Positions 1 through 43,043 of a stretch of 64,000 nt of DNA are shown here, piece by piece. The stretch comes from Candidatus Zixiibacteriota bacterium (lineage in GTDB: Bacteria; Zixibacteria; MSB-5A5; GN15; JAAZOE01). The notes beneath the pieces were generated by a model. That model was not told where the DNA came from. It did not search any database and saw nothing but the letters and a program-made list of their open reading frames with translations. Positions within the stretch are counted from its first letter, which is position 1. Each line of letters begins with the position of its first letter. The position numbers were made by a program, and so were the translations under genes. The stretch lies in the NCBI GenBank assembly GCA_043819555.1, contig JBDREQ010000039.1:37828-101827 (forward strand), given 5' to 3'.

Positions 1-168
1 GACCAGACGCATTGAATTGATGGTTCGGTCTGGAGATAGATCTTCCATTATCTTATCCGAAGACTGAATTGTCAAATCAAGAAGATAATACCCGGCCAAT
101 ACGATTATCAATGATGGAGCCAATGCGAATAAAATGAGATGACGGAATATTTTTGAGCGCAAATACAT
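1..168 (-). CDS. 5' part of a membrane protein running off the window; possibly a sensor kinase N-terminus
   Basis: Hand-translated from ATG at 168: MYLRSKIFRHLILFALAPSLIIVLAGYYLLDLTIQSSDKIMEDLSPDRTINSMRLV. Basic N-terminus plus one TM helix, open to base 1, starts 5 bp after the NUDIX stop. Not in the ORF track; product is a guess. Confidence 0.6.
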   Translation of the reverse strand, partial: MYLRSKIFRHLILFALAPSLIIVLAGYYLLDLTIQSSDKIMEDLSPDRTINSMRLV

Positions 169-173
169 ATGAT

Positions 174-737
174 TTATATATTATGCCGTTTGCGATACAG
201 AGTTAACGCATCTCGGTGAGCCTGAAAAGCGATATTCTCCGGAATATTTCCGAAATCAAAATAAACCGCCCGGGTGGCATCATCACCTGGAGAAAGTTTG
301 CCCCCAACGACATTGGCGTAATAGAGTACCAGGACGGCGTGAGTGCGGGGATCGTCCATGCCCATAAAGACATCGAACATCGACTGAATAGAAATATCAA
401 GACCCGTTTCTTCTTTTATTTCCCGAATGGCGGTTTGCTGCGGATGTTCATCCCATTCAACAAACCCGGCCGGGATACACCAATCACCCAGCCCGGGGTT
501 AATAGAGCGTTTGACCAAAAGGATGCTATCGTCTTTGACGATAATAGCCCCTGCGGCAGGGGCAGGGTTTTGATAATAGATAAAACCGCATGACCCGCAA
601 TGAGGCCGAATCGCCTCTTCAATCTTAGATATTTCCAGCTTATTTCCGCATCGCGGACAATATTGATAGCCATTGTAGTCGTTAAATTTCTGAAATTGTC
701 TGCCGCTGATAAGATATTTGAGATCATTGTCATTCAT
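174..737 (-). CDS. NUDIX hydrolase with N-terminal Zn-ribbon (ADP-ribose pyrophosphatase-like)
   Basis: CPRCG...CGSC Zn ribbon and Nudix box PAGFVEWDEHPQQTAIREIKEETG. Second ATG (737) chosen because it overlaps the upstream stop. Confidence 0.9.
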   Translation of the reverse strand: MNDNDLKYLISGRQFQKFNDYNGYQYCPRCGNKLEISKIEEAIRPHCGSCGFIYYQNPAPAAGAIIVKDDSILLVKRSINPGLGDWCIPAGFVEWDEHPQQTAIREIKEETGLDISIQSMFDVFMGMDDPRTHAVLVLYYANVVGGKLSPGDDATRAVYFDFGNIPENIAFQAHRDALTLYRKRHNI

Positions 738-26558: not shown

Positions 26559-27302
26559 TCAAATAAACTTTTCACGATTTTGGAGTTTTAAAAGCCCCAT
26601 CAGTGTCATCAATATTGAGCCTGCCACCAAATAAATGCGGTTATAGAGGGTAAGATCGGACTGTAAAATCCCCGCAAAGTCCTCAGTAGATTCGAATGGA
26701 TTATAAAAGATATCCCATTTATTGGCGCTCTGATCTTCTGTTATGATATTGTAGATTAACAGAAAAATCACAAGGATAGCCGCTGTACCATTTCCGTTTC
26801 GTACAAAAGTCGACACCATAAACCCAAAACTGCCAACAAAAAGAAGAGGAAACATAATATGATAAATCATTGACCATAGACTAAAATCTGCCAAGGCCAA
26901 TTGACAGAAAATTGCGTAAAGCAATAATATACTTGCGGTTACGATATATTGAGTAACGCATCTGGCCAGCCAAACCTTATATCGATAATCCGGAATTCCA
27001 AAAAGTGTTTCAATCATACGAGAATCGGTATCCCGCTGAATGGTGTACGTGGCCGGATAAAAAATCAGGAGAAGTCCCGGAGAATATAAGAAATAGTAAA
27101 TATCCTGTGCTGTTGGAGGAGTGTTTTCCTCAATCGTGTAGATGATGACTATGGTCAGGAACAAGGCCAGCGACAGGAATAAAAAATATTTGAATTTGCC
27201 GGCAAAGACATGATTGGCGTTATATCTGAAAAGGGAAATAATAAGCCTTAGTGTATCCAAAATTCTGGTACCGGTCAGATGTCTTTCTCGAGCATTCGTC
27301 AT
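26559..27302 (-). CDS. ABC-2-type permease-like membrane protein (last gene of the RND-ABC operon)
   Basis: About 6 TMs; IQRDTDSRMIETLFGIP resembles the ABC-2 coupling helix; ATG overlaps the upstream TAA. Confidence 0.7.
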   Translation of the reverse strand: MTNARERHLTGTRILDTLRLIISLFRYNANHVFAGKFKYFLFLSLALFLTIVIIYTIEENTPPTAQDIYYFLYSPGLLLIFYPATYTIQRDTDSRMIETLFGIPDYRYKVWLARCVTQYIVTASILLLYAIFCQLALADFSLWSMIYHIMFPLLFVGSFGFMVSTFVRNGNGTAAILVIFLLIYNIITEDQSANKWDIFYNPFESTEDFAGILQSDLTLYNRIYLVAGSILMTLMGLLKLQNREKFI

Positions 27303-30300
27303 TAATTCTCCTTGCCTCCGAGAAGCCATAAATATGAATCTTCCAGCGTCGGCGTCACTTGAACAGCGTTGGGGGTCGGCATAGTTTCCGCCAAAACGCG
27401 AATCCTAATATTATCACCCTCACGTGTATGATGAACAATACGTGCAGCGTTTCGCATTTTTTCAAATTCCGCGTCAGTAACATGCGCCTGCCAGACAAAT
27501 CCCTCAGTAAGAGCGACCATATCCCGGGGAGTTCCAATAAATTTGACTTTGCCGTCTCCCAAAACCGCTAATTTGTTGCAGGAACTTGAAACATCTTCGA
27601 TTATATGGGTTGAGAATATTACAATCCGATCCCGTGACAATTCCGACAAGAGATTTCTAAACCGGATTCGCTCACGCGGATCGAGGCCGGCCGTAGGTTC
27701 ATCGACAACCAATATTCGGGGCAAATGCAACAGAGTTTGAGCAATCCCGACGCGTTGTTTCATGCCACCGGAAAAGGCCTGGATTTTGGTGTTTTTGCTA
27801 TCTCCCAAATGCACTGAGTTAATCGCTCGTTCGACTATTTCGCGGCGTTCCTCATTATCCAGTAATCCTTTTAGAATGGCCTGGTAATCAAGGAATTGAT
27901 AAGCCGTCATAGTTTCATAGGTACCAAATTCCTGGGGCAAATATCCTATCAAGGCCTGCAATTCTTCCCGTTTTTCGTCGATATCGATATCGTTTATAGT
28001 CACTTTCCCAAAGCTATTTGAGAGTATGCCGCATACAATTCGCATCAAAGTTGTTTTTCCGGCTCCGTTGGGTCCGACCAAACCAAACATGCCGCTGCCA
28101 ATTTCCATGGAAACCTGATTGAGGGCCAAAAATGGAGTTTTCTTCTTGCCGATAATTGGAATTAATTTGACAAAACGATAAAATATTTTTCTGGTTTTTT
28201 TAAAACGACCCGTTATCCGATTTATGTTAATTCTATCCCGATAGAGTCTTCGCGAAGTGTGATAAATTAAAATGCCCAAATACCACAATACACCGATAAT
28301 TATTGCAGTAGCATTTTCGTTCGTTTCGATAAAAAGCCAAAGAGTATTAATCAAAGGCCCAAACCAGAATATAACAATAAAACCCAATTTCCGCAGAAGT
28401 CTCATTCTAATTTTGGAATTATCATCCGGAATCAACAAAGGCCGCGTCAGATAAACTGCATAAGCATAAAAAACGATCGAAAAAATAGTTTCCCAAAAAC
28501 CGCTTTCGAGATATAAATAAGTAAAATAAAAAAGAAAAATTACGAATGGCATTTGCCAGATTAGACTAATAATGCCGGCCGGTTCGGGCAATTCGCCGCG
28601 AAACCGTTTTCTTTCCCGAAAGCGTTTACCACCCCGCCATTCCTGCATAAAACGCGAGTAATTGCCGTATAATTTGACGACATTCCTGATTGAGATTTTT
28701 ATCGGCACATCGCCGGGAATCAATTTTGCGCTGCTTCGACGGAGCGACGTTTTGATAAAATAGGTCATACCCGGGACAACAATAATGATGACGCAAAGAT
28801 CAATCGCCCGCCATAGGAAGGAATCTATATAAGTGTATATTGCCACAAATCCAGCTATCGCTGCCGCAACCTGAGCTACCTGCAAATACCATTTTAAACC
28901 GCGTAACCATCTGACCACGTTTTCGAGACCAAATGCGACCGTAGGGATAAAAATTAATGTAAACAGCGTGCCAGCGACAAGACCCCCGATAACGGTAATT
29001 GCAAATGGCGCGCCAATCTTGGCGACATATTCCGCCTTGCCCATCGCCAGCGGAAACATGGCCAGAATGGTCGTAATGGCGGTGATCAAAATTGGGCGAA
29101 CTCTGGCCTGACCAGCCATTAATAACGCCCGGCTGGGAGTATATTCACGGCGCCTTAACAGGCGATAATAATCCATTAAAATAATGCCGTTATTAACCAC
29201 TACTCCCAGCAGGATTAAAAACCCGGTTAAAACATTGGCGTCATACACTGAGTTATTGGTCAGGATCAAACCCCAAAAGGCACCGATTGTCGCCAGAGGC
29301 AAAGTAAACATCATAACCAGAGGAGTTAAAAGCGATTCGAAAATTGATGCCAGAATCATATAGATCAAAATTATGCCGGTAAATATAAGAAAATAAAAAT
29401 CGGACAGATCCGTCTCTTCGTGAACCGCTTCGACCGCGACGCCAGGAGGAAGATTTATGGCCGCGACTATCTGATCAATTTCCGCGCGGGCGCCGTCTAA
29501 TAACTGTTTTGAGTCTTCAATTTCTTCTTCAAAACGGTAAATGACTTCAACTATTTTTTCCTGGTTAGTGCGATTGATACTTGAATATCCATTATTATAA
29601 ACGATACCGGCAAGCTGAGTCAGGGGGATGTTCCCTCCCGAATTACTCGGTACAACCACTTGACGTAAATCATCCGAGGTTTTATCAATCTCCTCTTCAT
29701 CTGAGCTTTTGAGGATTATACTGACCTCTTCGGTTCCCTGCCGTAACGTCGCGCCGGAAGAAAATTCCCCTTGGAAACCGGCCAGTTCAGACATAATAGA
29801 AGTCGTTCTAACATCAAAATGGCTTAGAGCGGATTTATCAAACATTAGGTCAATACCAGGCTGGCCTTGAGATACTGACAAATTCGCTCGCTGAACGGTG
29901 GAAAGGTTTTCAATATTAAACAAAATATCGTCGGCAATGCTTGTCAATAGGGCCATATCCTGGCCCTTTACGACCACTCGCTCTTCGCTTGAGCCAATTC
30001 CCAGCAACCGCTCAAAGGCTCGTCCGGCTCCTCCCATACCGCCGGCTCCGCCGCCTCCGCGATAGCGAGCGTTAGATACGGGCTGCTCATATGAGAAATT
30101 AATGCGGCCATAAGCCCCTCCAAGCTTCTCCAATATATCAGCCTTGATCGCACTCAAATCACGATCACCAATATCTTTGTAATCTTCGACTAATTGAAAA
30201 GTAATGGTCGAAACCTCTTCTTCAATATTGGCTCGCCGCTCCTCCACTTCCGGAATCTCTGACAAGCGCGCATCCATATCCAGTATTTGTTCATCCGACG

Positions 30301-32014
30301 ATTCCAAAGTTGTTCCAGCCGGCATCGATGCATAGAGGGTAAATTCATCAAGTTCGACCTCGGAAGGAATATTAATGCTCAGGGCGAGACATATAATAAC
30401 GCTTAGAAAAAATACCGTCGTTCCGATTAAGATAGTCCGAGCTGGAAAACGCAAACATGATTTTAATAACAGAGTGTAGATTTGCATCTGCCGATTAGCC
30501 AGCGACATTCTTGTGAATATGGATTTTTGTGTTTCCCTTTTATTTTTCAGGATACGATAAGTAAATGACGGAATAAGCAAAAAGGCGACCGCCAGGGACA
30601 CTAAAAGAGTCGAAATAATCGACACCCCGACATGCTTCCCGATCGTACGAATCAGGAAATTATCAGAAAATATAAATGGCAGAAAAATGCAAACCGTAGT
30701 CAATGTCGCGGCAGTCACCGCACGCAAAACCTCCTTGGTTCCGATTAACACCGAATCAAATGCTGATTTACCATGAGCGGCATGACGATAGATATTTTCC
30801 ATGACAACGATGCTATTGTCAAGAAGCATTCCAAGGGCGATAGCCAGACCGACCAGAGTTAGAGTATTTATGGATATGTTGAAAGCATAGAAAAAATTCA
30901 TCGCGATCATTACCGAAATGGGAATGGCAAGTGCCACTACTAATACCAGGGGAACATTTCGAAGAAATATCCATAATACGACAATGGCCAGGATGCCGCC
31001 AACGAGGGCCAGCAATTTAATTATCTCGATGTTTTGTTCTATAGGTTCGGCCGCATCGATCTGAATCGCCAATATAATTCCGTCAGATTTCAGGCGGTCA
31101 TTTAATAGTTCGATAACATCGCGGGTTTCTCGTGAAAGACTAAGCAGATTGGTCTGCTGGTCACGAACGAGAGTGATGGAAATCGCTTCCATTCCATTAA
31201 TGCGCGAGATTGATTCTTCTTCCGCGCCGCCATCAATAATCGTACCCAGATGTTTTAGTAAAACAGGGCCCTGTTCTTTGATAATCAGGTTTTCGAGATT
31301 ATTAATCGAATTATAATCGGCATCAAGATTTACATAGAATTCTCGATTGCCTTCAACTACCTGCCCCAAATATTGACGCCCGGATGAGCCCTCCGAAATT
31401 TTTGATGAAATTTGAGAAGCGGTAAGATTATGAGAGCGCAACGCGTTTTCATCGAGGCGTATCTCGATTGAACGTTTTCTTCCGCCATAGACTTCTATAT
31501 TGGCAATGCCGTCAATCTGCTCAAATTCAGTGATAACTTTACTATCAACAATTTCCCGGATTTGATCAAGACTGCCTTCCCCCCGTGCCTGAAGGGTCAT
31601 GAACATATTAGCCAATTGCTCGGTATCGACTTTCCAAACCCGGGCAAAGAAACCGGCCGGCAGTGCGCCTGAAGCGGATTCAACTCTCTCCTGCAATTTC
31701 AGATAGGCGTATTTGTAATTGGTATCTTCGGTATAATAGACAATAATCGTCGCCCGTGAACGATCTATGTACGATTCAATTTTCTCAATATCCGCCAGTC
31801 CGGCAATGGCGTTTTCAAGAGGAATAACGGCTTGCTGCTCGAGATAATGCGGATCGGCATCTCGGGCGCCGCCAACCTGGACGATTAGCATGGGAAGTTC
31901 GGCAAAAGGAATAAGTTCAACCGGCAGGCGATTATATGAGATAACGCCTAAGAGGCAAAACCCGATTATTAACATTGCCGTGAAGACCGGCCGCTTTATA
32001 ATAAATGCGATCAT
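27302..32014 (-). CDS. AcrB-family RND permease fused to a C-terminal ABC ATPase
   Basis: About 1030 aa RND (GMLLDNSIVVMEN, RVRPILIT), extra TMs, then NBD with GPNGAGKTT, YLPQ, FSGGMKQR, LVVDEPT, STH; one uninterrupted 1570-aa ORF. Confidence 0.93.
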   Translation of the reverse strand: MIAFIIKRPVFTAMLIIGFCLLGVISYNRLPVELIPFAELPMLIVQVGGARDADPHYLEQQAVIPLENAIAGLADIEKIESYIDRSRATIIVYYTEDTNYKYAYLKLQERVESASGALPAGFFARVWKVDTEQLANMFMTLQARGEGSLDQIREIVDSKVITEFEQIDGIANIEVYGGRKRSIEIRLDENALRSHNLTASQISSKISEGSSGRQYLGQVVEGNREFYVNLDADYNSINNLENLIIKEQGPVLLKHLGTIIDGGAEEESISRINGMEAISITLVRDQQTNLLSLSRETRDVIELLNDRLKSDGIILAIQIDAAEPIEQNIEIIKLLALVGGILAIVVLWIFLRNVPLVLVVALAIPISVMIAMNFFYAFNISINTLTLVGLAIALGMLLDNSIVVMENIYRHAAHGKSAFDSVLIGTKEVLRAVTAATLTTVCIFLPFIFSDNFLIRTIGKHVGVSIISTLLVSLAVAFLLIPSFTYRILKNKRETQKSIFTRMSLANRQMQIYTLLLKSCLRFPARTILIGTTVFFLSVIICLALSINIPSEVELDEFTLYASMPAGTTLESSDEQILDMDARLSEIPEVEERRANIEEEVSTITFQLVEDYKDIGDRDLSAIKADILEKLGGAYGRINFSYEQPVSNARYRGGGGAGGMGGAGRAFERLLGIGSSEERVVVKGQDMALLTSIADDILFNIENLSTVQRANLSVSQGQPGIDLMFDKSALSHFDVRTTSIMSELAGFQGEFSSGATLRQGTEEVSIILKSSDEEEIDKTSDDLRQVVVPSNSGGNIPLTQLAGIVYNNGYSSINRTNQEKIVEVIYRFEEEIEDSKQLLDGARAEIDQIVAAINLPPGVAVEAVHEETDLSDFYFLIFTGIILIYMILASIFESLLTPLVMMFTLPLATIGAFWGLILTNNSVYDANVLTGFLILLGVVVNNGIILMDYYRLLRRREYTPSRALLMAGQARVRPILITAITTILAMFPLAMGKAEYVAKIGAPFAITVIGGLVAGTLFTLIFIPTVAFGLENVVRWLRGLKWYLQVAQVAAAIAGFVAIYTYIDSFLWRAIDLCVIIIVVPGMTYFIKTSLRRSSAKLIPGDVPIKISIRNVVKLYGNYSRFMQEWRGGKRFRERKRFRGELPEPAGIISLIWQMPFVIFLFYFTYLYLESGFWETIFSIVFYAYAVYLTRPLLIPDDNSKIRMRLLRKLGFIVIFWFGPLINTLWLFIETNENATAIIIGVLWYLGILIYHTSRRLYRDRININRITGRFKKTRKIFYRFVKLIPIIGKKKTPFLALNQVSMEIGSGMFGLVGPNGAGKTTLMRIVCGILSNSFGKVTINDIDIDEKREELQALIGYLPQEFGTYETMTAYQFLDYQAILKGLLDNEERREIVERAINSVHLGDSKNTKIQAFSGGMKQRVGIAQTLLHLPRILVVDEPTAGLDPRERIRFRNLLSELSRDRIVIFSTHIIEDVSSSCNKLAVLGDGKVKFIGTPRDMVALTEGFVWQAHVTDAEFEKMRNAARIVHHTREGDNIRIRVLAETMPTPNAVQVTPTLEDSYLWLLGGKEN

Positions 32015-35000
32015 GTTGCCTTGTGCTCGGACTTCAGGTCTATGGTCGAAACTTTTCCGGCCAGCATATAATAGACCGCAGGTATTACGATCAGGGTCAA
32101 AGCGGTCGAAGTGAACAGTCCGCCAATAACGGCGATGGCCATCGGCGCCCGGAGCGATGCCCCTTCGCCAATACCGATCGTCAATGGCAATAGAGCAAGA
32201 ATTGTAGTAATACTGGTCATTATAATCGGCCGAATTCGAGTCTGCCCGGCGTTTGTAATGGCGGGAATGAGTTCCAATCCGCTGCGGCGGTTTTGATTGA
32301 TGCGATCTATTAAAATGATTGAGTCGTTGACGGCGATTCCGGCCAGCATGATTATCCCGATAAATGACATGACATTAAACGGCATATTAAGAATAAATAG
32401 AATGAATACCGCCCCGACTCCGGCCAGAGGAATCGTCAACAGTATAACAAAGGGATGAAGAAGCGATTCGAATTGAGATGCCATCACCATATAAACCAAA
32501 ATAATCGCAAGAAGAAGCGCAAATTTCAAATTTCCAAAAGCTTCCTGGCGCAATTGCTCTTCACCGGTCACAGCAATCGAATATTCCGGCGGGAGCGCAA
32601 TCGTGTTGAGCGATTCTTTTACTTTGACCGCGATTCTATCGAATGATATATCATTGGTGATATGCGCCGTTATACGGGCGATTCTGATTTGATTATTCCT
32701 GATAATTTCACGCGGGGAATAAGTCTGCTCAATATAGGCAATTTCATCAACGCGAACCCGGCGTCCTGAAGAAGTCTCCAAAAGCAAACCCTCAAGTTCT
32801 GAAAGGGTAATATCCGCGCGCAAAAGCTTAATATCCGTATATTCGCCCTGGTGATTTATCTGTCCGGCATCCCGCCCGCTGAGAGCGTCCTTCAGTTGCG
32901 AACCAATCGACTGGGGAGTAAGTCCAAATTCTGATGCCATTGTTCTATTTATCCGAAGATTTATCTCAGGGCGGCCTTCCTGAAAACTGGTTTCAACATT
33001 TTTAAGCTCAGAGATGGCCATAACTCTTTGCTGAACCGTGTCGGCCAGTTGTTCCAAAAGATCCAAATCCTGCCCCTTAATCTCAATGACAATCGGCTCC
33101 GATTCTGTACCGAGTGTTGAACGCAGAGCGGTTTGTTCTACAATTAAACGGGCCTCAATATCCGGCAATCCAGCCAAAATTTGATTAATACCCTCGATAA
33201 TTTTCTCTGATGAATTGGCTGCCTCCGGATTCAGAAGAATATGTATTATGGCATTATTTTCATCGGCCAAAGCATCAATTTCGAGATTGCCCGCTCCCCC
33301 GGGACCGACTCGGGAATAGATGTGGTTGATATTGTTTTTAAATTGTTCCTTCAGAATATTCTCAATATTTCTAACGGCGCCTTCGGTCCTCTCCAAGCTG
33401 GTTCCTTCAGGCAGGGCGAGATTAATCGAAAGTTCACCCTGGTTGGCATGAGGCATAAACTCACTGCCTGTGATAGGAATCAAAATGACAGCAATAATAA
33501 CCAGAACAAATCCGCCAGCAATGATTCGCACCCGCCGGGCAATAATTTTTTCCAGTAATCTGCCGTATCCCGGAAAAGTAATTGTATGTTTTACTGTATA
33601 AGTCTGCCGTTTTTTCAGAAGCCGCGAGCATAACATCGGAATAACCGCCAGAGCAACAAACAAAGACGATATAAGAGAATAGGCCACCGTCCAGGCCTGC
33701 TCCCGGAATAACTCTCCGGCAGCTCCATGCAAATATACAATCGGCAAAAAGACAATAATGGTTGTCAACGTCGAGCTTGTTATGGCGCCGCCAACTTCTC
33801 CAGCCCCATATATAGCCGCATCCTTTAACGATTTGCCATCCTCAAGATGCCTGAAAATATTTTCAACGACAACGATGGCGTTATCGACCAACATCCCCGC
33901 CCCAAGCGCAAGCCCTCCCAAGGTCATGATATTCAGCGAGAGATCATTGAAGTACATCAAATTGAAAGTCGCCACGATCGAAATGGGAATCGCAAAGCTG
34001 ATAACGGCGGTGATACCGATTCTTCTCAGGAAAACATAAAGAATAATGATGGCCAGTATAATTCCAATAATTCCGGTCTGCTCAACTTCGGTAACAGCCG
34101 CGCGAATAAAATGAGCCTGGTCCTGAATGATGGTTAATTCGTACCCCGGCAAAGCTGTACTGAGTTCCGCCAGTCGATCCAAAGCTGCCGCCGCGGCATC
34201 AATCGTGTTATAACGAGCCTCTTTGTAAACTTCAAGCGCCAGACATTTTTGCCCATTCAATCGCACAATGTTTTCAGGCTCATCAAGGCCAAATTCAATC
34301 GATGCCACCTCGCGCAAATAAATCGGTACCCGGTCGGCAGTATTTGCGGCTTGAGTACCCTCGGGAGATTTATAGGCGACAATTAAATTCTCAATATCGT
34401 CCTTATCATAGAACTCGCCGACGCCTCGGATAATATATCTTTTGCCCATTTCGACAATCGATCCCCCGGTCATATTGCGATTGGATGACATGATTTGCCC
34501 GGCCAGAAGATCAAGCGTAATTCCGTAGGCCTCAAGTGTGTAGGCATCAGTTTTGATTTCGACCGCGCGGCGTCTGCCGCCGATGATGTCAACTTCGGCC
34601 ACACCGGGAAGACGAATCAACTCGTTGGAAATATTATTTTCCGCCGTTTGCCTTAGTTTGTCCAAGTCTTTGAATTCGGGATGAGAAAAGATGGCCGTGA
34701 CAATCGGAACGGCATTGGGGTCATGCTGACTGACCGAAATTTCATCAACGTCCGAGGCTTGAGAATAATCGGCAACGGCCTTCTGTAAATCCAGAAAAGC
34801 CTCATCCATATCGGCATCCCAGGCGTATTCGATAGTAATTAACGCCCGTCCGACGCGGGATATTGAGGATACGTTTTGAACTTTGCGTCCGCGGGCGGCG
34901 ACCGCCTCAAGCTGAGATACGAATTGATCCTCAATTTCCTCGGGGGGCCTCTCCCCGGCGCTGATTTCCATGAATAGGCGGGGGCTGTTCAAATCGGGTA

Positions 35001-35112
35001 GTAAATCGACCCCGAGCCGGGTAAAAGAAATATACCCCAAAAGCAGGACAGCCAGAACCACCATCAAAATGGTCGTCGGATATTGAACTGAAAAACGTGC
35101 AAGTTTATACAT
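32011..35112 (-). CDS. AcrB/AcrD/AcrF-family RND permease
   Basis: GMLVDNAIVVVEN, RIRPIIMT, 12-TM layout, 1033 aa. Confidence 0.95.
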   Translation of the reverse strand: MYKLARFSVQYPTTILMVVLAVLLLGYISFTRLGVDLLPDLNSPRLFMEISAGERPPEEIEDQFVSQLEAVAARGRKVQNVSSISRVGRALITIEYAWDADMDEAFLDLQKAVADYSQASDVDEISVSQHDPNAVPIVTAIFSHPEFKDLDKLRQTAENNISNELIRLPGVAEVDIIGGRRRAVEIKTDAYTLEAYGITLDLLAGQIMSSNRNMTGGSIVEMGKRYIIRGVGEFYDKDDIENLIVAYKSPEGTQAANTADRVPIYLREVASIEFGLDEPENIVRLNGQKCLALEVYKEARYNTIDAAAAALDRLAELSTALPGYELTIIQDQAHFIRAAVTEVEQTGIIGIILAIIILYVFLRRIGITAVISFAIPISIVATFNLMYFNDLSLNIMTLGGLALGAGMLVDNAIVVVENIFRHLEDGKSLKDAAIYGAGEVGGAITSSTLTTIIVFLPIVYLHGAAGELFREQAWTVAYSLISSLFVALAVIPMLCSRLLKKRQTYTVKHTITFPGYGRLLEKIIARRVRIIAGGFVLVIIAVILIPITGSEFMPHANQGELSINLALPEGTSLERTEGAVRNIENILKEQFKNNINHIYSRVGPGGAGNLEIDALADENNAIIHILLNPEAANSSEKIIEGINQILAGLPDIEARLIVEQTALRSTLGTESEPIVIEIKGQDLDLLEQLADTVQQRVMAISELKNVETSFQEGRPEINLRINRTMASEFGLTPQSIGSQLKDALSGRDAGQINHQGEYTDIKLLRADITLSELEGLLLETSSGRRVRVDEIAYIEQTYSPREIIRNNQIRIARITAHITNDISFDRIAVKVKESLNTIALPPEYSIAVTGEEQLRQEAFGNLKFALLLAIILVYMVMASQFESLLHPFVILLTIPLAGVGAVFILFILNMPFNVMSFIGIIMLAGIAVNDSIILIDRINQNRRSGLELIPAITNAGQTRIRPIIMTSITTILALLPLTIGIGEGASLRAPMAIAVIGGLFTSTALTLIVIPAVYYMLAGKVSTIDLKSEHKAT

Positions 35113-36199: not shown

Positions 36200-37702
36200 C
36201 TATTGCAAAGCTATAACTGCCTGATTCCTGGAAAAATCCCACAGCGACCTGATTTTTAAATCCAATAAGGCTACTTGATAATTTATCAGGGCCGAGATTT
36301 CATTGAGCTGTTCTCGTGATAATTGGGTTTGATAGAATTCTATATCTTTGGAAGATAAATCTCCGTTACGATACCTTTCGAGATTTATCTCGTATGTCCG
36401 CCGCGCGTTTATCACATTCTTTTCGGCGATTTCGATTTGCGTTTTTTGGTTTAAGAGATTGCGGCAGGCCTGGCGGATCTGATATTTAACCTGCTTTTGT
36501 TCCTCATCGGCCGATATCCGCTCCTGTTCAACCCGTTTCCGGGACGATTCAATCTGATGCTTCTTCTTGCCCCAGTCAAATAAAGGAATATTAAGCTTTA
36601 TCTCTACCATTTGATTGCGAGTCGGCGATCGATAAATATCTCCGAATAGACTATCAGTGCCGACGATGCCATAGGTCAAATCCACACTGGCCAAAAATTC
36701 ATTTTCCGAACCGGCTCGAATCAAATCATCCAAAGCATATTGAATATCAATATCCCTCTGGCGCAATTCCATACGATTCTGGAGGCCATGGTTCATAGCC
36801 TGCATTAGATTAATATCAACCACGTTCTTTTCCACATTGGTCACAACCTGCAAATCGTCATCAAGAGACAACCCCAGAAGAATCTTGAAATTATCGAGAG
36901 AATTCTCAAATTGTATTTGGCTGTTTTCGAGCGAAGCCCGGCTATTAGCCTGAGTCAAATCAGCCTGAAATAATTCTTCCTCAGCCGATATACCCGCTTC
37001 TACTTTGCTTCTGATTATTTCATAGCTTTCGGTCGCATTGGCCAATTCTTCTTTAGATATTTCAACGCTTCTCTGCCTGAAATAAAGACTTAGAAATTCC
37101 TGCGTGACCTGGCGCTCAATCTGCAGACGTTGGATAGCGAAGTTCAATTGCGCGTTTTCCAGCGCCAACTCGAGTTCTTTAATCCGCATTTGTGTGCGAT
37201 TGTAGGTAAATAAAGGCTGGTTAAGACTTAAATAAAGCGAATTCCTATACGATTTGTCTTTTTCTGTGCCGACTAATGAACTTGACGATTCCCGCCAGTC
37301 GAAATCCTCTACGATTCGCAAAGTACCATCGGTCCATTTGATTGGTTGCAGGATTGAAAGGCTGGCCGCAGAACTGGTCTGTTCTATGGTATAGTATTCT
37401 GAAAAGCGATCATCAAAAACTCTGTCTTTTGAAAATCTAAAAGGAGTCACAGTTAAATTAAACTGGGATTTCAATGAAGCCTGCTGCGCCCATAGATTTC
37501 TCTCGCTCATCTCCAGATTCAAACGGGTATTTCGAATCGTGGGGCTGTTGGTCATAGCCATATCCAGAGCCTGCTCCAAAGTCATATCAATCGCCGCCAC
37601 CGGGCTGGATAATCCCAATTGAGATAAGATTGCTATCAGGAGAATAACCGTAATTTGATTAATCTTTTTGACAGAAATCCATGTTATCACTCTTTTCATC
37701 AT
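36200..37702 (-). CDS. TolC-family outer membrane efflux protein
   Basis: MTLEQALDMAM..NSP, LNQPLF, LNIPLFDWG, ERYRNG repeats. Confidence 0.92.
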   Translation of the reverse strand: MMKRVITWISVKKINQITVILLIAILSQLGLSSPVAAIDMTLEQALDMAMTNSPTIRNTRLNLEMSERNLWAQQASLKSQFNLTVTPFRFSKDRVFDDRFSEYYTIEQTSSAASLSILQPIKWTDGTLRIVEDFDWRESSSSLVGTEKDKSYRNSLYLSLNQPLFTYNRTQMRIKELELALENAQLNFAIQRLQIERQVTQEFLSLYFRQRSVEISKEELANATESYEIIRSKVEAGISAEEELFQADLTQANSRASLENSQIQFENSLDNFKILLGLSLDDDLQVVTNVEKNVVDINLMQAMNHGLQNRMELRQRDIDIQYALDDLIRAGSENEFLASVDLTYGIVGTDSLFGDIYRSPTRNQMVEIKLNIPLFDWGKKKHQIESSRKRVEQERISADEEQKQVKYQIRQACRNLLNQKTQIEIAEKNVINARRTYEINLERYRNGDLSSKDIEFYQTQLSREQLNEISALINYQVALLDLKIRSLWDFSRNQAVIALQ

Positions 37703-37740: not shown

Positions 37741-40700
37741 TTAGCGCTTGACCCATTTGATCGCGTCGGCGGTAACAACCTGAGTCCGGTTTTTATCGGT
37801 CATCTCAATTTTATTGGAACCGCTTGGCAGGCGAAATGTCCCCAAATAATTCCAGCCTTCTTCGGCGTCATCAAGGTCAAGAAGGATTTCCTCGACACCA
37901 TCCTCATGATATACAAAAAACTGCTTCTCGCCCATGTCCTGATTTCTATTCCCGCCCCGGTGTCTCCACCAGTTCTCATAGCTTTCATCCTCAAAATAAA
38001 AATAGACATCAAAATCACCGGATGCTTCCAGATTAATTTCCCAGGCAATTTTATTTTCTCCGGTGCCGGATTTCTTGTGCATGGCTGACTTAATGAATTT
38101 GCCGTGAAATTTCTGTCCTGTCGTCGGGAGCCAGACACCCGGCGCATCCCAGGAACGTATCCCGACATAGGGATCTTCAATCTCGCCAATGTCAAAATAT
38201 TCGCGTAGATTTCGCCTCAGCCAGTTTTCTGGAATAATACCTATAATAGTAAAGCCGGGGTCCTCGTTATCAACAAGATATTCTCCAGACGAATCATTTT
38301 TATTATCCGCGAAAGCCGCTAAGGAATCCATTTCAACCGGAGTTTCTTTGCGTCGCATCTGTTGATCTCGAAATTGATGGTTTAAAATTGCCGGAATATT
38401 CTGGGAAACATAAGTATCAATAGTCATTGAAGACGGGGGCTGGTCGATAATAAATCCAATCTCGCGCCGCTTTTGAGCTGGGACATAGTACATTTTTGAA
38501 TAATCGTATTGTTGCTGCATTCTCTCCCACCGGGGACCAAAATTCGCTTCCTGGCGCTGATAGCGCAGACTAATCTTTATCAGACCATCAACATCAGTAG
38601 GATTTGTAACCTTAAATTTCACCTGTGTTTTGGTTCGTTCATCATGAATGATATTATAGCTTTCTATATCTTCAAAAATATAACCGGCTAGAGCCGTATC
38701 TCCGTACCAGACATCTATATCGGATGCAAATTCCGGGCTTCCAACTCTCGAAGCGAAGGCCAATATTGTCGAATCTGTGATATTTTGAAAGCTGTTGGTC
38801 TTAATGAAATCGTTTATCTCGCCTGTAAATTCTTCGTTTCCCGATCTGGCTTCAAGAATAGAAATAAGGCTTAATCCTTTCGATTTTACAGCGGCCTGCA
38901 CCGTTTCGTCCTTTACCGCTGAAGTATTAATAATTTCCTTTAAGGGAAATTGCTTCAACGCCAGATTGGCTCGTTCCTGTTCCGTGAGGCCAGCGTCAAA
39001 CCACATCGAAATTTGTGGAGGAGGTTTTATGCGGCTTTCAAAATAAGACTCGAAGGCATAATTTAAAAACGGCCAATTTTCAGAATTAATATTCGTGACA
39101 TATGAAACAAAATTGGGCAGAATCTTGAAACGTATTTCGACATTCTCATGCCGAGTCAAACCCCGCATATCTTCATTGAACCCCATAAGATCAATTTTGG
39201 CAAAATAGCCTAAATAGGTGGCTTGAAGAACTTTGGGATCCTCCAATTGATTAGCCCGTTCCTGCGACCAGTTAGAGCTTCTCTCAAATCTCCTGAAATC
39301 ACATCCGGAATTGGCGGTACCCATTTCAGTTAAATACACAATTTGAGGTTGAACCGTTTCCTGAGCTATTGTCCAGTAGCGGTTATATGCATAAAATTGA
39401 ATCGGAGCTTCGACTAAACTGAATTTGTCATAGGGATATTCCAGTCCAAGGTTTACTTCATACTCATTTTTTAAATCAATTATGACCGTCCCAATAGTGT
39501 CACCCAACTCATTAAAATATTCTAAATAATAATCGTGGCCGGGGAATGTATATAAAGAATATTCTACATCCTCCGCGGTGAGGAAATGACGTTCATATTC
39601 TCCGATCGTTAACGACATTTGGGGAAGAAATTTCTCAGGAGCAAACGAGTATTCGATTTGACCGTTTTTCTCTATAGTTGAGACTTTCCCCTGAGAGATG
39701 GCTGTCAATCCGGGAGGAGCCGAGACGGTTAGACTAAATTTAGTAAATTCTCGGGCGGGCGAGTCAGGAAAGGCCGTTCCCGGCTGTAGCCCAGCATTGG
39801 GATACCATCCGCTTTCCGGAGTCAAATGCAGATACCTATCGGCCACGAAGGAATAGATTTTGGGAATTCGAAATATCCACAGGCTGTATTCGGATTCAAG
39901 TTTGTCATTGGGCAAATCGAGATAACAATAACGATCATCAATCGACCCCGAATACTCTATTATCATTGAAAGAGTATCGTTCATGGCGACAGGATTTTGA
40001 GGTTTAATCCAGATTAAAAACCTGTTCTGTGAAAACTCAATCACTTCTCCGGAAATTGATATTGAAGAAACTTTCAATCCCGGGTTTAGCGAAAATAACA
40101 ATGAATCAAGGCTGGATTCATTATTATTGACAACGCTCAAAGTTGAACGTCCCGATAAAACGCCGCCCTGCCAATCAATTTCAAGAGAATTTTCCAGAAT
40201 ATTAACGGTCGGTGTATTGGGAGCGCTTTGGGCCAGTGATTTCAGGTCTTGTCGGTAATCCCTATCCTGATAATTTGAATTCAGGTATGTCATCCCAAGT
40301 AAAACAGATGAGACTAAACAGACAATCGAAATCACGGAAGCGGCAACATTGGCAACTCTCGATTGTTTTAATCTTTTGGTCGTAAATACTGAAATGAAAA
40401 ACATCCCCAAACCGAGAATGAAATAGGCCCCTCTCAGCAGAAAAACATCGGACCAGTTGCCCAGGCCGACAAAGCCCGAGAATATAAGAGGCTGATATAA
40501 CATATAGGCATCAAAAATGAAATAAAAATGCCGTCCCAGATAAATCAGTGATAATAAAGAAAATCCAAGCATGGCAACAAAGACAACGGCCTGGCTGCGA
40601 AACAGCGTTACCAGTAAAACCGATCCCCCGATTACAAACGTCAGAGTCGGCAAACTTACCAAAAGAGGAAACCATAAATAAGGTTCCCATGCAAATGCTG

Positions 40701-41115
40701 AGGGCGATAAAAAGGCATCGAATATCAAAGTCATAAGAATCAGAACCGCATTCAGAGCGAGGAAAACGCCCAGTATACCCAGAAACTTCCCAAGGAGATA
40801 ATCGATATTTGAAAACGAGCGGGTAAAAATGACTTGCGACGTATCATGATTTTTGTCGCGCTTTAAAAACTCGGTTGCCATAAAGGCCGCGATTATACCC
40901 TGATATATATTGAGCATTTTCAGATTGGCCAATAAAAGAGAACCGCCCAGGGCACGCATGTAGTGAGGCGCCCCGCCGATTTTGGTGCCCATTCCCATGC
41001 ACATCCCAAATAATATGGCAATGCCCAAAATGGAAAAGATTCGGAATGCCCATGACCGTAACAGGAGCTTGGCTTCATACCAGGCGACACTTTTTATGGC
41101 ATAGAGATTCAGCAT
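37741..41115 (-). CDS. ABC-2 permease fused to an M1-aminopeptidase-like periplasmic region (no HExxH) and a golvesin/CBM-like C-terminal domain
   Basis: About 7 TMs with EFLKRDK...YLLGK; M1-like LFSLNPGLKV, ESGWYP, GLEYPY..FSLVEAP; C-terminal VDNEDPGF...GWNYLGTF...ADAIKW. Confidence 0.75.
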   Translation of the reverse strand: MLNLYAIKSVAWYEAKLLLRSWAFRIFSILGIAILFGMCMGMGTKIGGAPHYMRALGGSLLLANLKMLNIYQGIIAAFMATEFLKRDKNHDTSQVIFTRSFSNIDYLLGKFLGILGVFLALNAVLILMTLIFDAFLSPSAFAWEPYLWFPLLVSLPTLTFVIGGSVLLVTLFRSQAVVFVAMLGFSLLSLIYLGRHFYFIFDAYMLYQPLIFSGFVGLGNWSDVFLLRGAYFILGLGMFFISVFTTKRLKQSRVANVAASVISIVCLVSSVLLGMTYLNSNYQDRDYRQDLKSLAQSAPNTPTVNILENSLEIDWQGGVLSGRSTLSVVNNNESSLDSLLFSLNPGLKVSSISISGEVIEFSQNRFLIWIKPQNPVAMNDTLSMIIEYSGSIDDRYCYLDLPNDKLESEYSLWIFRIPKIYSFVADRYLHLTPESGWYPNAGLQPGTAFPDSPAREFTKFSLTVSAPPGLTAISQGKVSTIEKNGQIEYSFAPEKFLPQMSLTIGEYERHFLTAEDVEYSLYTFPGHDYYLEYFNELGDTIGTVIIDLKNEYEVNLGLEYPYDKFSLVEAPIQFYAYNRYWTIAQETVQPQIVYLTEMGTANSGCDFRRFERSSNWSQERANQLEDPKVLQATYLGYFAKIDLMGFNEDMRGLTRHENVEIRFKILPNFVSYVTNINSENWPFLNYAFESYFESRIKPPPQISMWFDAGLTEQERANLALKQFPLKEIINTSAVKDETVQAAVKSKGLSLISILEARSGNEEFTGEINDFIKTNSFQNITDSTILAFASRVGSPEFASDIDVWYGDTALAGYIFEDIESYNIIHDERTKTQVKFKVTNPTDVDGLIKISLRYQRQEANFGPRWERMQQQYDYSKMYYVPAQKRREIGFIIDQPPSSMTIDTYVSQNIPAILNHQFRDQQMRRKETPVEMDSLAAFADNKNDSSGEYLVDNEDPGFTIIGIIPENWLRRNLREYFDIGEIEDPYVGIRSWDAPGVWLPTTGQKFHGKFIKSAMHKKSGTGENKIAWEINLEASGDFDVYFYFEDESYENWWRHRGGNRNQDMGEKQFFVYHEDGVEEILLDLDDAEEGWNYLGTFRLPSGSNKIEMTDKNRTQVVTADAIKWVKR

Positions 41116-41130
41116 GCAATTGTTCTCCGA

Positions 41131-42042
41131 TTACCAGCCATTATCCGAAGCTTCCAGATCCATTTCAAATCCGCTGGTTTGCATGAAATAAATATAAGCA
41201 TCTTCAAGATTGGGCTCAAGTGGCTCGGCATCTTTCCCCGTTACTTCTTCCGCAACCAAACGAAGCTCATAACCGTGCTCAGCCGGCATAGCAGAAATGA
41301 CGGGGTATTTTTCCTTAAACCTGTCAATTTCCCCGCCATCGACATACACCCGCCAGACTTTTCCTTTAGTCTTATTTATCAATCCATCCGGAGAGCCATT
41401 ATAGATTATTCTCCCCGAGCTAAGAAGAGCCATATCATGGCATGTGGATGATATATCCCCGACTATATGAGTTGATAAGACAATAATTATATCCCGGGTG
41501 GCCAAATCAGCCATCAAATTTCGAAATCTCAGCCGTTCCTGAGGGTCAAGGCCGACGGTCGGTTCATCGACGATTAAAATCTGCGGATCGCCAATAAGGG
41601 TTTGGGCAATTCCCAATCGTCTTTTCATCCCGCCTGACAACTTGTTTGCGTTGCGGTCGCGGACATCAAAGAGGCCGACCTCATCCAGCAGTTTATCGAC
41701 TTTTTCAAGGCGTTTTTTCTTATCTTTCACGCCGCTCATTTGGGCGGCATAATCAAGAAATTCCCATACTGCAGTTTTGGCAAAGGTACTGAAGCCCTGA
41801 GGCAAATAGCCAATCAAACGGCGAATTTCACGGCGTTGTTTCTGTAAATCCATATCATTTATTTTAATCTGGCCCTGAGTCGGTTTTAGAAGCGTAACCA
41901 GGATACTCATTAAAGTCGTTTTGCCGGCTCCATTGGGGCCCAGAAGTCCGAATAAACCATTCTCAATTGTCAAGCCAACGTCGCGAAGAGCCAATTTGCC
42001 GCCGGGGTATTGTTTGGTAAGGTTATTTATTCGTATTTCCAT
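41131..42042 (-). CDS. ABC transporter ATP-binding protein (DrrA/CcmA-like), first gene of the RND-ABC operon
   Basis: GPNGAGKTT, LSGGMKRR, IVDEPT, STH. Confidence 0.95.
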   Translation of the reverse strand: MEIRINNLTKQYPGGKLALRDVGLTIENGLFGLLGPNGAGKTTLMSILVTLLKPTQGQIKINDMDLQKQRREIRRLIGYLPQGFSTFAKTAVWEFLDYAAQMSGVKDKKKRLEKVDKLLDEVGLFDVRDRNANKLSGGMKRRLGIAQTLIGDPQILIVDEPTVGLDPQERLRFRNLMADLATRDIIIVLSTHIVGDISSTCHDMALLSSGRIIYNGSPDGLINKTKGKVWRVYVDGGEIDRFKEKYPVISAMPAEHGYELRLVAEEVTGKDAEPLEPNLEDAYIYFMQTSGFEMDLEASDNGW

Positions 42043-42341: not shown

Positions 42342-43040
42342 TTAATCACTCACAATTAAGCGAAATCCTTTACCGTGAATTCCCCTTATTTCAATCCTGG
42401 GATCACCTTTGAGGTATTTTCGTAATTTTGATATAAACACGTCCATACTGCGACCGCTGAAGTAATTTTCGCTGCCCCAGATTTTCTTCAAAGCTTCATT
42501 TCGATCAAGGGTTTTATTGAGATTAATGCAGAGCAGTCGTAATAAATCGGCTTCCTTGGGCGTTAGTTTTCTTTCATTATTATCATTGACTAACAAGCTC
42601 CGATTATAATCGAATGTAAAAATGCCGATTTTAAAATTAACTTGTAAATTGTCACTTTCGTTCTGTGCGTTAACTCGTTTTAAAATCGCTCGAATTCGTA
42701 AGAGCAATTCTTCAATACTGAACGGTTTTGTTATATAATCGTCGCATCCTATTCCAAATCCCCTTATTTTATCCTCGGTCAGCGATTTGGCTGTTAGAAA
42801 AATAAGGGGGATGTCTTGATCCATGTCGCGAACTTTGCGAGCGAATGTAAACCCATCCATTTTGGGCATCATTACGTCAACCAAACATAGATCATAAGAG
42901 TTATTTGAAAAAAGGTCCCAGCCTTCCGAGCCATTTACGCATAGGATAACTCCAAAACCCTGCATTTGCAGATGTTCCCTGAGTATTAACCCAAAATTGG
43001 CATCATCTTCCAGAAGAAGAATTTCAGTTTTCTGATTCAT
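42342..43040 (-). CDS. OmpR/PhoB-family response regulator (RprY-like)
   Basis: LLEDD, DVMMP, DDYITKPF, winged helix RSMDVFISKLRK...HGKGF. Confidence 0.95.
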   Translation of the reverse strand: MNQKTEILLLEDDANFGLILREHLQMQGFGVILCVNGSEGWDLFSNNSYDLCLVDVMMPKMDGFTFARKVRDMDQDIPLIFLTAKSLTEDKIRGFGIGCDDYITKPFSIEELLLRIRAILKRVNAQNESDNLQVNFKIGIFTFDYNRSLLVNDNNERKLTPKEADLLRLLCINLNKTLDRNEALKKIWGSENYFSGRSMDVFISKLRKYLKGDPRIEIRGIHGKGFRLIVSD

Positions 43041-43043
43041 GGT

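Follow-up and report, generated by a model that had tools for sequence, protein, structure and literature searches.

The nucleotide-binding domains (NBDs) of ATP-binding cassette (ABC) proteins are usually presented as compact, contiguous cytosolic cassettes, and resistance-nodulation-division (RND) and ABC pumps as alternative efflux engines. A 64,000-nucleotide stretch of DNA from a Candidatus Zixiibacteriota bacterium (GenBank assembly GCA_043819555.1, contig JBDREQ010000039.1, positions 37,828 to 101,827; the whole stretch is called the window below) raises the question of whether the NBD of an ABC exporter can be built from two pieces of one chain that are held apart by a membrane domain. 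The minus-strand open reading frame (ORF) at 27302..32014 gives a stop-free translation of 1570 amino acids (aa), in which an RND permease (residues 1-1035) is followed by two extra transmembrane (TM) helices, the strand IKISIRNVVKLY, a 180-residue insert and an NBD from residue 1297. An earlier, sequence-only reading of the window had claimed that this strand is the first strand of the NBD and that the insert anchors the NBD in the membrane. The analysis described here suggests that the protein probably joins an RND permease to the ATPase of a type V (ABC-2) exporter, with an NBD made in two pieces, the first strand (beta1) being split off by a four-TM insert, and with the protein P0003, encoded next to it, as its partner. 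Relatives in public databases are annotated as an RND permease subunit or as an ABC-domain protein. The parts of the fusion, in the order in which the chain is translated, are as follows.

28910..32014, minus strand: RND permease domain, residues 1-1035; Pfam ACR_tran; phmmer matches MdtB, CmeB, MexB and AcrB
28745..28891, minus strand: extra helices TM13 and TM14 after RND TM12, residues 1042-1090; model helices 7-27 and 31-55, hydropathy segments 1045-1067 and 1070-1088
28667..28702, minus strand: putative displaced beta1 strand with the A-loop tyrosine, IKISIRNVVKLY, residues 1105-1116; model strand 72-81
28601..28654, minus strand: basic helix after beta1, predicted to be cytoplasmic, residues 1121-1138; model helix 86-103
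28238..28573, minus strand: insert of four predicted TM helices, residues 1148-1259; model helices 113-133, 137-159, 167-195 and 199-224, and hydropathy peaks
28202..28231, minus strand: second beta1-like motif, ININRITGRF, residues 1262-1271; aligned by MAFFT under beta1 of three other NBDs
28148..28201, minus strand: basic and aromatic helix just before beta2, KKTRKIFYRFVKLIPIIG, residues 1272-1289; model helices 237-249 and 251-254; candidate equivalent of a gate helix
27305..28132, minus strand: NBD core from beta2 to the C-terminus, residues 1295-1570; Pfam ABC_tran

Predicted place of the distant strand in the ATPase sheet

Residue n of the fusion begins at base 32014-3(n-1). The strand IKISIRNVVKLY, residues 1105-1116, is encoded at 28702..28667 of the minus strand, LALNQVSMEIGSGMFG begins at residue 1296 with the codon 28129..28127, and the gap from Tyr1116 to Ala1297 is exactly 180 residues. 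Translation of the frame gives precisely the first strand at 28667-28702 and the separation of 180 codons that had been claimed for it. The Pfam profile ACR_tran (PF00873) matches protein residues 1-1025 over profile positions 1-1015 of 1021 with 524.5 bits against a cut-off of 28, and ABC_tran (PF00005) matches residues 1298-1442 with 97.7 bits against a cut-off of 25. The motifs GPNGAGKTT, LPQE, FSGGMKQR, ILVVDEP and STH can all be read in the NBD, and Walker A K1320, Q-loop Q1361, the signature S1415-G-G, Walker B D1438 and E1439, and H1470 are invariant among 110 sequences. Judged from its sequence, the fused NBD is complete, with all catalytic motifs present. It is not encoded as one contiguous stretch, as beta1 lies 180 residues upstream of beta2.

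The displacement is most easily seen by comparison with stand-alone ATPases, one of which is encoded in the same window (41131..42042, minus strand) and begins MEIRINNLTKQYPGGKLALRDVGLTIENGLFG / MEIRINNLTKQYPGGKLALRDV. This free ATPase and the fusion share their best NCBIfam models, GldA and DrrA. The correspondence drawn between the two in the sequence-only reading is borne out by BLASTP, which aligns residues 17-287 of the free ATPase with residues 1296-1565 of the fusion at 42% identity, a match that takes in all of the NBD core as well as the C-terminal domain; because the match starts at residue 17, the first 16 residues of the free ATPase are without a contiguous counterpart in the fusion. 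The GldA model aligns with the free ATPase from its profile position 1 onwards and with the fusion only from position 13 (the DrrA model matches the fusion from position 5), so that beta1 is missing directly upstream of beta2. The closest stand-alone NBDs, which have the motif GMFGLLGPN, begin, for example, VKISIDHLTQIYRNGNK / AINDVSLEIEDGMFGLLGPN, and this closely resembles the IKISIRNVVKLYGN ... ALNQVSMEIGSGMFGLVGPN of the fusion. The fusion thus shares with stand-alone ATPases of the DrrA/GldA type both the GMFGL(L/V)GPNGAGKTT motif and a beta1 such as VKISIDHLTQIY, but these ATPases have 4-6 residues between beta1 and beta2, no TM helices and no RND part.

Residues 1036-1570 of the fusion were modelled with AlphaFold2 from an alignment of 110 sequences (alignment A1; 1035 is added to the model numbering to give protein numbering). 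The model has a mean predicted local distance difference test value (pLDDT) of 85.9 and a predicted template-modelling score (pTM) of 0.68. It begins with helices 7-27 and 31-55, followed by a strand at 72-81, a helix at 86-103 and the four helices 113-133, 137-159, 167-195 and 199-224. Downstream of the insert come helices 237-249 and 251-254, then beta2 at 260-270 and a normal NBD. The strand at 72-81 corresponds to protein residues 1107-1116, and model residues 71-80 have a pLDDT of 92.

When the model was compared with solved NBDs by VIA-align, the NBD core gave Z values of 23-28, and in all 50 of the listed alignments the match sets in at model residues 66-71 (protein 1101-1106) on the one side and at the very beginning of the solved chain on the other. 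Model residues 71..462 align with chain residues 1..230 of MJ0796 (1l2t_A; 217 of 230 aligned, root-mean-square deviation 1.9, Z 23.6), residues 70..531 with 2..239 of 1vpl (234 of 238 aligned, Z 26.1) and residues 70..532 with 2..236 of LptB (4p33_A; 230 of 235 aligned). As all 50 listed alignments include residues 1105-1116 at the chain start, the strand occupies the beta1 position, and the near residue-for-residue match of solved stand-alone NBDs is obtained only if 1105-1116 supplies beta1. In the modelled fold, residues 1107-1116 are the beta1 of the NBD and complete its sheet, so the prediction and the listed alignments both bear out a strand in the NBD sheet as it had been proposed.

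The conservation of the strand is consistent with this assignment. Y1116, the A-loop aromatic, is invariant in 224 of 224 relatives, and K1114, present in 217 of the 224, gives with it the canonical K-x-Y of beta1. A beta1 profile of 16 columns was made from 57 N-termini of stand-alone NBDs, the source of which was a context search with alignment A1; that search worked with generic Walker patterns only, and among the 80 matches listed only the loci L001 and L002 were full ones, the rest being ordinary NBDs that were reused as stand-alone beta1 sequences. Over 114 full-length relatives the profile found a match in 111, and the best match lay at the 1105-1116 site in 108; of the 114 shuffled controls, 33 gave any match, none of them above 0.8 bits. 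When segments were excised and scored on their own, residues 1105-1116 (site A) gave 11.2 bits here, with a median of 10.85 bits in the relatives (224/224 scored).

Several points weigh against this assignment. The structural case comes from a single AlphaFold2 prediction, and the pairing of beta1 with beta2 was taken from DSSP and from the alignment ranges, not from listed hydrogen bonds. Mutual information with average product correction (224 C-terminal regions, effective number of sequences 137) was noisy and dominated by variable linker columns; a single pair was suggestive, N1118-F1335 (z 7.7), and hints at proximity to the beta4 region. Beta1 is too conserved to covary, and the mutual information was uninformative. 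A search of the PDB with phmmer aligned residues 1283-1296 (KLIPIIGKKKTPFL) with the beta1 region of ABCA3 NBD2. A four-sequence MAFFT alignment placed residues 1260-1273 (RDRININRITGRFK), not 1105-1116, under beta1 of the free ATPase and of L003, an RND-NBD fusion described below. Finally, the model of a monomer is compatible with a beta1 that is donated to the NBD of a neighbouring subunit.

The stretch directly before beta2 (KIFYRFVKLIPII) was considered as a candidate beta1 and rejected: it is a helix in the model, and the beta1 profile has no match there in P0001, despite the phmmer alignment with ABCA3.

The MAFFT alignment, which put 1260-1273 with beta1 of the free ATPase, L013 and the TM-less L003, suggests an alternative in which the true beta1 is ININRITGRF (1262-1271) after the insert. 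A Wzt-like gate helix (1272-1289) and then beta2 would come next, the NBD would be contiguous, and IKISIRNVVKLY would be a relic or an accessory linker strand. The order of strand-like motif, helix and beta2 would then be collinear with the layouts of L003 and Wzt, and the site is well kept, G1269 being invariant (224/224) and R1266, R1270 and F1271 well conserved. The model, in contrast, shows a coil and a short helix at 1262-1271, not a strand, at a pLDDT of 84-91, and the 50 listed alignments to solved NBDs all use 1105-1116 instead. Scored with the beta1 profile, 1262-1271 (site B) gives -3.6 bits here and a family median of -0.9, and it falls below site A in 206 of 206 sequences. It has G-R-F in place of K-x-Y, with F1271 in 187 of 224 relatives against Y1116 in all 224, and the end of TM18 is only about 3-8 residues away. 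What precedes beta1 in L003 (P..EPLQIEI) also resembles the upstream context of site A (P..VPIKISI; family consensus EPIRITI). A contiguous NBD of this kind is, on this evidence, improbable.

Across the family the motif at 1262-1271, located between the last helix of the insert and the one that precedes beta2, reads [IV]-[ND]-[IV]-x-R-[LI]-x-G-[RK]-F. It may have been left behind when the insert arose.

A different arrangement keeps 1105-1116 as beta1 but completes the sheet in trans: the strand would enter the NBD of an adjacent fusion chain, and the swap would keep two NBDs together. Between the strand and the rest of its own NBD there are 180 residues with four TM helices and long linkers, NBDs must dimerise to hydrolyse ATP, and a model of one chain cannot tell a cis from a trans strand. 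That model nevertheless closes the sheet in cis with high confidence, and none of the tools gave a result in favour of the swap, which we regard as distinctly improbable.

The membrane insert, its conservation and its counterparts

With residues 1105-1116 taken as the beta1 of their own NBD, the intervening chain becomes an insertion in the A-loop region, and its properties are largely those that had been read from the sequence. A Kyte-Doolittle scan and the AlphaFold2 model agree on two helices after RND TM12, at 1042-1062 and 1066-1090, and on four hydrophobic helices inside the insert, at 1148-1168, 1172-1194, 1202-1230 and 1234-1259. Hydropathy alone gives the 12 RND helices, two more at about 1045-1088 and four between 1146 and 1253. 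The six extra hydrophobic segments are kept across 224 aligned relatives, in which the Tyr-to-Ala insert varies between 157 and 215 residues (median 183). The sequence-only reading had counted two further TM segments before the NBD and about four in the insert with Arg/Lys-rich flanks, and had raised conservation of the insert in homologues; hydropathy, the model and the relatives are in accord with it on each of these.

The charges are arranged as expected for such a topology. Lys and Arg together average 13.5, 3.2 and 12.7 in the three stretches predicted to be cytoplasmic, the first of which is the loop 1090-1145, and 0-0.3 in the predicted periplasmic turns (224 relatives). This positive-inside pattern places both beta1 and the NBD core on the cytoplasmic side. 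Because the insertion starts right behind the A-loop tyrosine and its TM helices have a positive-inside topology, the NBD is predicted to be attached to the membrane both before and after beta1; the claim that it is anchored by a domain inserted in its A-loop region is thereby upheld, the strand lying in the NBD sheet in the model.

Of 7999 candidates scored in a search with residues 1036-1570, 5077 had E<=0.001. The best 120 of the 5077 all carry RND and ABC Pfam domains, most are 1538-1621 aa long, and they cover 99-100% of residues 1036-1570 at 50-88% identity. The layout is therefore not due to chance, given the conservation of this region in the best 120 relatives and the constancy of insert length in the 224. 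The names among the best 120 include Zixibacteria, KSB1 and Gemmatimonadota; shorter database entries, mostly fragments from short contigs, add names of Bacteroidales, Aminicenantes, Latescibacterota, Krumholzibacteria and Spirochaetales. Within the phylum to which the window belongs, the insert region was found in 12 of the 151 genomes sampled, or 10 of 88 genera. A protein atlas search with residues 1036-1300 reached a best score of 0.75, which is below the meaningful level, and no structure of the fusion is present in the atlas; a genome context search that used the insert alone returned no matches.

The same relatives bear on the possibility that fusion and split are an artefact of assembly or frame that joins separate genes. 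Two database proteins of 483 aa, P0148 and P0239, start just before beta1 and consist of beta1, the four-TM insert and the NBD, with no RND part, and in two of 80 related metagenome loci (L109 and L151) an in-frame stop lies nearer upstream, at 499 and 116 codons. Those most similar to P0148 (87% identity) themselves have an open frame from beta1 up to the locus edge, which leaves a free-standing beta1-4TM-NBD form unconfirmed. The frame is open for 1570 codons here; among the 80 metagenome loci, 54 have at least 1088 open codons before beta1 and 24 more are open to the edge, and none has a stop within about 100 codons upstream of beta1. Apart from the window's own match, 10 of the 11 matches in the phylum sample lie in open frames of 1572-1596 aa, the other being in a frame of 475 aa, and many sources are represented among the relatives, about 110 in number, with lengths of roughly 1540-1620 aa. 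An artefact is extremely improbable.

The connection between beta1 and beta2 is a known site of insertion. In the parts of PMC6379404 drawn on here, the gate helix of Wzt, which teichoic-acid transporters are also reported to have, is an extra element in this connection, right behind the A-loop aromatic; it is positioned against the transmembrane domain (TMD), where membrane and cytosol meet, with a conserved Tyr in an electropositive pocket, and shifts by about 8 A upon ATP binding. Like the element of Wzt and TarH as described in the same parts of that source, the insertion of the fusion is at the beta1-beta2 site and would lie next to a TMD of ABC-2 type (PMC6379404). The fusion family also keeps a conserved basic, Tyr-containing helix just before beta2, a candidate counterpart of the gate helix, with R1275, F1278, Y1279, R1280, V1282, P1286 and G1289 as conserved residues and IP.IGKK following, and the four TM helices of the fusion sit between beta1 and this helix. 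The differences are of scale and of family: the Wzt element is a single amphipathic helix of ~15-20 residues that is cytosolic, whereas the connection in the fusion is 157-215 residues long with four membrane crossings, and the best NCBIfam models of the fused NBD are GldA and DrrA, not Wzt/TagH, in an ATPase that is joined to an RND pump.

The regulatory insertion of CFTR is also located between the first two strands of an NBD. It is, however, an insertion of ~32 residues that is disordered and cytosolic and carries a phosphorylation site, in a eukaryotic type IV ABC protein. As with the fusion, the insertion is inside the NBD itself, and the CFTR NBD1 insertion (residues 405-436) can be removed without destroying the fold, according to the sections of PMC3776845 used here.

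A further counterpart is the fusion at L003:3518-7831 (plus strand), from the metagenome-assembled genome of an uncultured bacterium, a 1437-aa RND-NBD protein without the four-TM insert. Its NBD belongs to the same subfamily, with 45% identity over the core. In it, beta1 (LQIEIDHLTRIY) is followed by a connection of ~45 residues, with a helix HYYRSIFK similar to the FYRFVK of our fusion, and then by beta2; the connection has no TM helix, and a single short hydrophobic segment follows RND TM12. This TM-less protein with an extended beta1-beta2 connection indicates that the same loop is a variable site in the subfamily. Upstream of it (L003:725-3493) lies a 922-aa permease that resembles a 1124-aa protein of the window described in the last section; this permease is its neighbour in place of a P0003-like protein.

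No paper describing this architecture was found in the literature on RND/ABC fusions and on insertions between NBD beta-strands 1 and 2. What is new is that the insertion at a known gate-helix or regulatory-insertion site is itself a membrane domain, and that it occurs inside an RND-ABC fusion. A conserved family (Zixibacteria, KSB1, Gemmatimonadota, Bacteroidales, Aminicenantes, Latescibacterota and others) thus departs both from the view of the NBD as contiguous and from the separation of RND and ABC pumps. It would extend the idea of the gate helix from a single interfacial helix to a membrane domain and, if the model is right, provide a natural test case for the relaying of movements of the A-loop and beta1 edge of an NBD into the membrane.

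The likely partner P0003, the RND part and a possible mechanism

The fusion is part of a string of genes for transport proteins, of which the following adjoin it.

26559..27329, minus strand: P0003, 256 aa, six-helix membrane protein, likely the type V (ABC-2) TMD partner
32011..35112, minus strand: plain RND paralogue, 1033 aa, directly upstream and overlapping the fusion start; Pfam ACR_tran, 747.4 bits
35131..36189, minus strand: membrane-fusion protein (adaptor); Pfam HlyD_D23 and HlyD_3
36200..37702, minus strand: outer-membrane factor (OMF) of the same string; Pfam OEP

The start of P0003 overlaps the end of the fusion gene. By sequence this protein matches ABC-2 only weakly: it has no NCBIfam match, it scores 18.6 bits with ABC2_membrane_2 (below the cut-off of 27.2), and its family is small, with 149 representatives at E<=1e-3 among 1.84 billion. 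Its AlphaFold2 model consists of six long helices (pLDDT 89.2, pTM 0.86) and best matches the TMDs of PmtCD, CcmB, NosY and ABCG2/25, at template-modelling scores (TM-scores) of 0.54-0.60 and a best E of 2.5e-4; Wzm, KpsM and TarG also match, with lower TM-scores of 0.36-0.49.

Prediction of a complex between residues 1036-1570 and P0003 gave a score of 0.71, against 0.00 for the best of three controls. The mark set for this score is reached by 116 of 157 solved complexes and by 2 of 215 mismatched pairs, and as NBD-TMD complexes have already been solved, the pass may reflect likeness to known structures. At least 82% of the contacts were shared between runs, with a partner pLDDT of at least 77. 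In the predicted interface, the N-terminal helix (25-43) and the coupling helix (103-119) of P0003 face the Q-loop and helical region (1350-1387) and Tyr1116 of the fusion; Glu107 in the coupling helix is invariant. Neither the insert nor TM13 and TM14 received a confident contact in the complex prediction, a result that is uninformative either way by the tool's own warning. From these models P0003 is likely to be the type V (ABC-2) membrane partner of the NBD.

The gene order is conserved. Of the 80 metagenome loci, 71 were eligible for the downstream side, and in 70 of these a P0003-like ORF comes after the stop of the fusion; on the upstream side, all 46 eligible loci have a plain RND ORF immediately before the fusion. 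Both neighbours are also found in L001 and L002, and two Bacteroidales genomes show the same order. Two adjacent genes for RND paralogues beside an adaptor and an OMF recall MdtABC and MuxABC. MdtB and MdtC, in contrast, lack an ABC domain, and the plain RND of the window has only 29% identity with the RND domain of the fusion.

The canonical proton relay of RND pumps consists, in AcrB numbering, of D407 and D408 in TM4 and K940 in TM10. When the fused RND is compared with MdtB, TM4 reads lldnsivv against vvddaivv, so that the first Asp is kept and the second is Asn, and TM10 reads vvvnngiil against ivkknaimm, the relay Lys being Asn; the Arg in TM11 is kept. Two of the three residues are thus lost, and the canonical set is not complete in the fused RND. 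Both sites lie within 29200-30830 of the window, TM4 near residues 396-405 (LLDNS) and TM10 near 938-946 (VVNNG against VKKNA in MdtB), and both DNS and VVNNG show almost no variation across the fused family. The plain RND (32011..35112) has VDNA in TM4 and VNDS in TM10. As the relay residues are altered in both the fused and the plain RND, the two paralogues may have a modified proton relay or may share one between them.

A glycine-rich stretch, RYRGGGGAGGMGGAGRAFERLLGIG, lies within the periplasmic region of the fused RND (residues 649-675, window 29990-30070). Its core, GGG..G..F.RLLGIG, is present in the family consensus and is unusual for the porter domains of AcrB-type proteins.

If the NBD is indeed in two pieces, the chain would run from beta1 and the A-loop tyrosine through four membrane crossings (1148-1259) to the cytoplasmic basic and aromatic helix at 1272-1289, and from there into beta2, Walker A and the rest of the NBD, with beta1 back in its usual place in the sheet of the folded protein. 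The six helices made up of TM13, TM14 and the insert would tether the NBD under the membrane beside the transmembrane domain of the RND part, which in turn probably acts with the plain RND paralogue, the adaptor and the OMF encoded upstream. The insert emerges right behind the ATP-stacking tyrosine, at the position of the gate helix, so that nucleotide-dependent motion would pass to its helices. Binding of ATP at Tyr1116 might then shift the TM insert and link the ABC cycle to the RND part or to a hand-over of substrate. The sequence-only reading had likewise supposed that the insert may couple nucleotide state to the RND; the one complex prediction gave confident contacts only at the classical interface between the NBD and P0003.

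A possible substrate route is suggested by mycobacteria, in which MmpL7 (an RND protein) and DrrABC (a type V ABC exporter) are both required for export of phthiocerol dimycocerosates (PDIM), according to the parts of PMC11539658 used here. Of the known functional pairings between RND and ABC pumps it comes nearest to the present case, although MmpL7 and DrrABC are separate proteins, MmpL7 is of a different RND subfamily, and no split NBD is described in those parts of the source (PMC11539658). From the resemblance to this double requirement, a substrate of the present system might first be taken across or out of the inner membrane at the expense of ATP and then pass out by the route of RND, adaptor and OMF.

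A more ambitious proposal is that of a single hybrid machine, modelled on MdtBC, which forms a B2C1 heterotrimer in the part of PMC7015380 drawn on here. A heterotrimeric RND of two fused subunits and one plain subunit would bring together two NBDs that clamp two copies of P0003, and six tether helices in each fusion would keep the resulting type V ABC exporter close against the transmembrane domain of the RND. Binding and hydrolysis of ATP would move the four helices of the insert, and this motion would drive or gate an RND part that lacks two of three proton-relay residues; alternatively, it would pass an amphiphilic substrate from the lateral gate of the ABC exporter into the entry groove of the RND. 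Such a machine, proposed by analogy, is rather unlikely. If it existed, an ATP-driven pump and a pump of the proton type would be in direct mechanical connection, and whether ATP and proton pumps can work as one machine is a question that can be tested with five genes, namely those for the adaptor, the OMF, the plain RND, the fusion and P0003.

Other genes of the string

The same string of genes is headed by a second ABC system (37741-42042, minus strand), which consists of the free DrrA/GldA-type ATPase and a multi-TM protein of 1124 aa. The extracytoplasmic part of the latter is large and its C-terminus carries a Golvesin_C domain (48.2 bits); no match to NCBIfam or to another Pfam family was found for it.

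Directly upstream of the transporter genes, at 42342-44759 on the minus strand, are genes for a membrane protein of 571 aa and a protein of 232 aa. From their sequences these look like a sensor histidine kinase and a response regulator, and the pair may control the operon.

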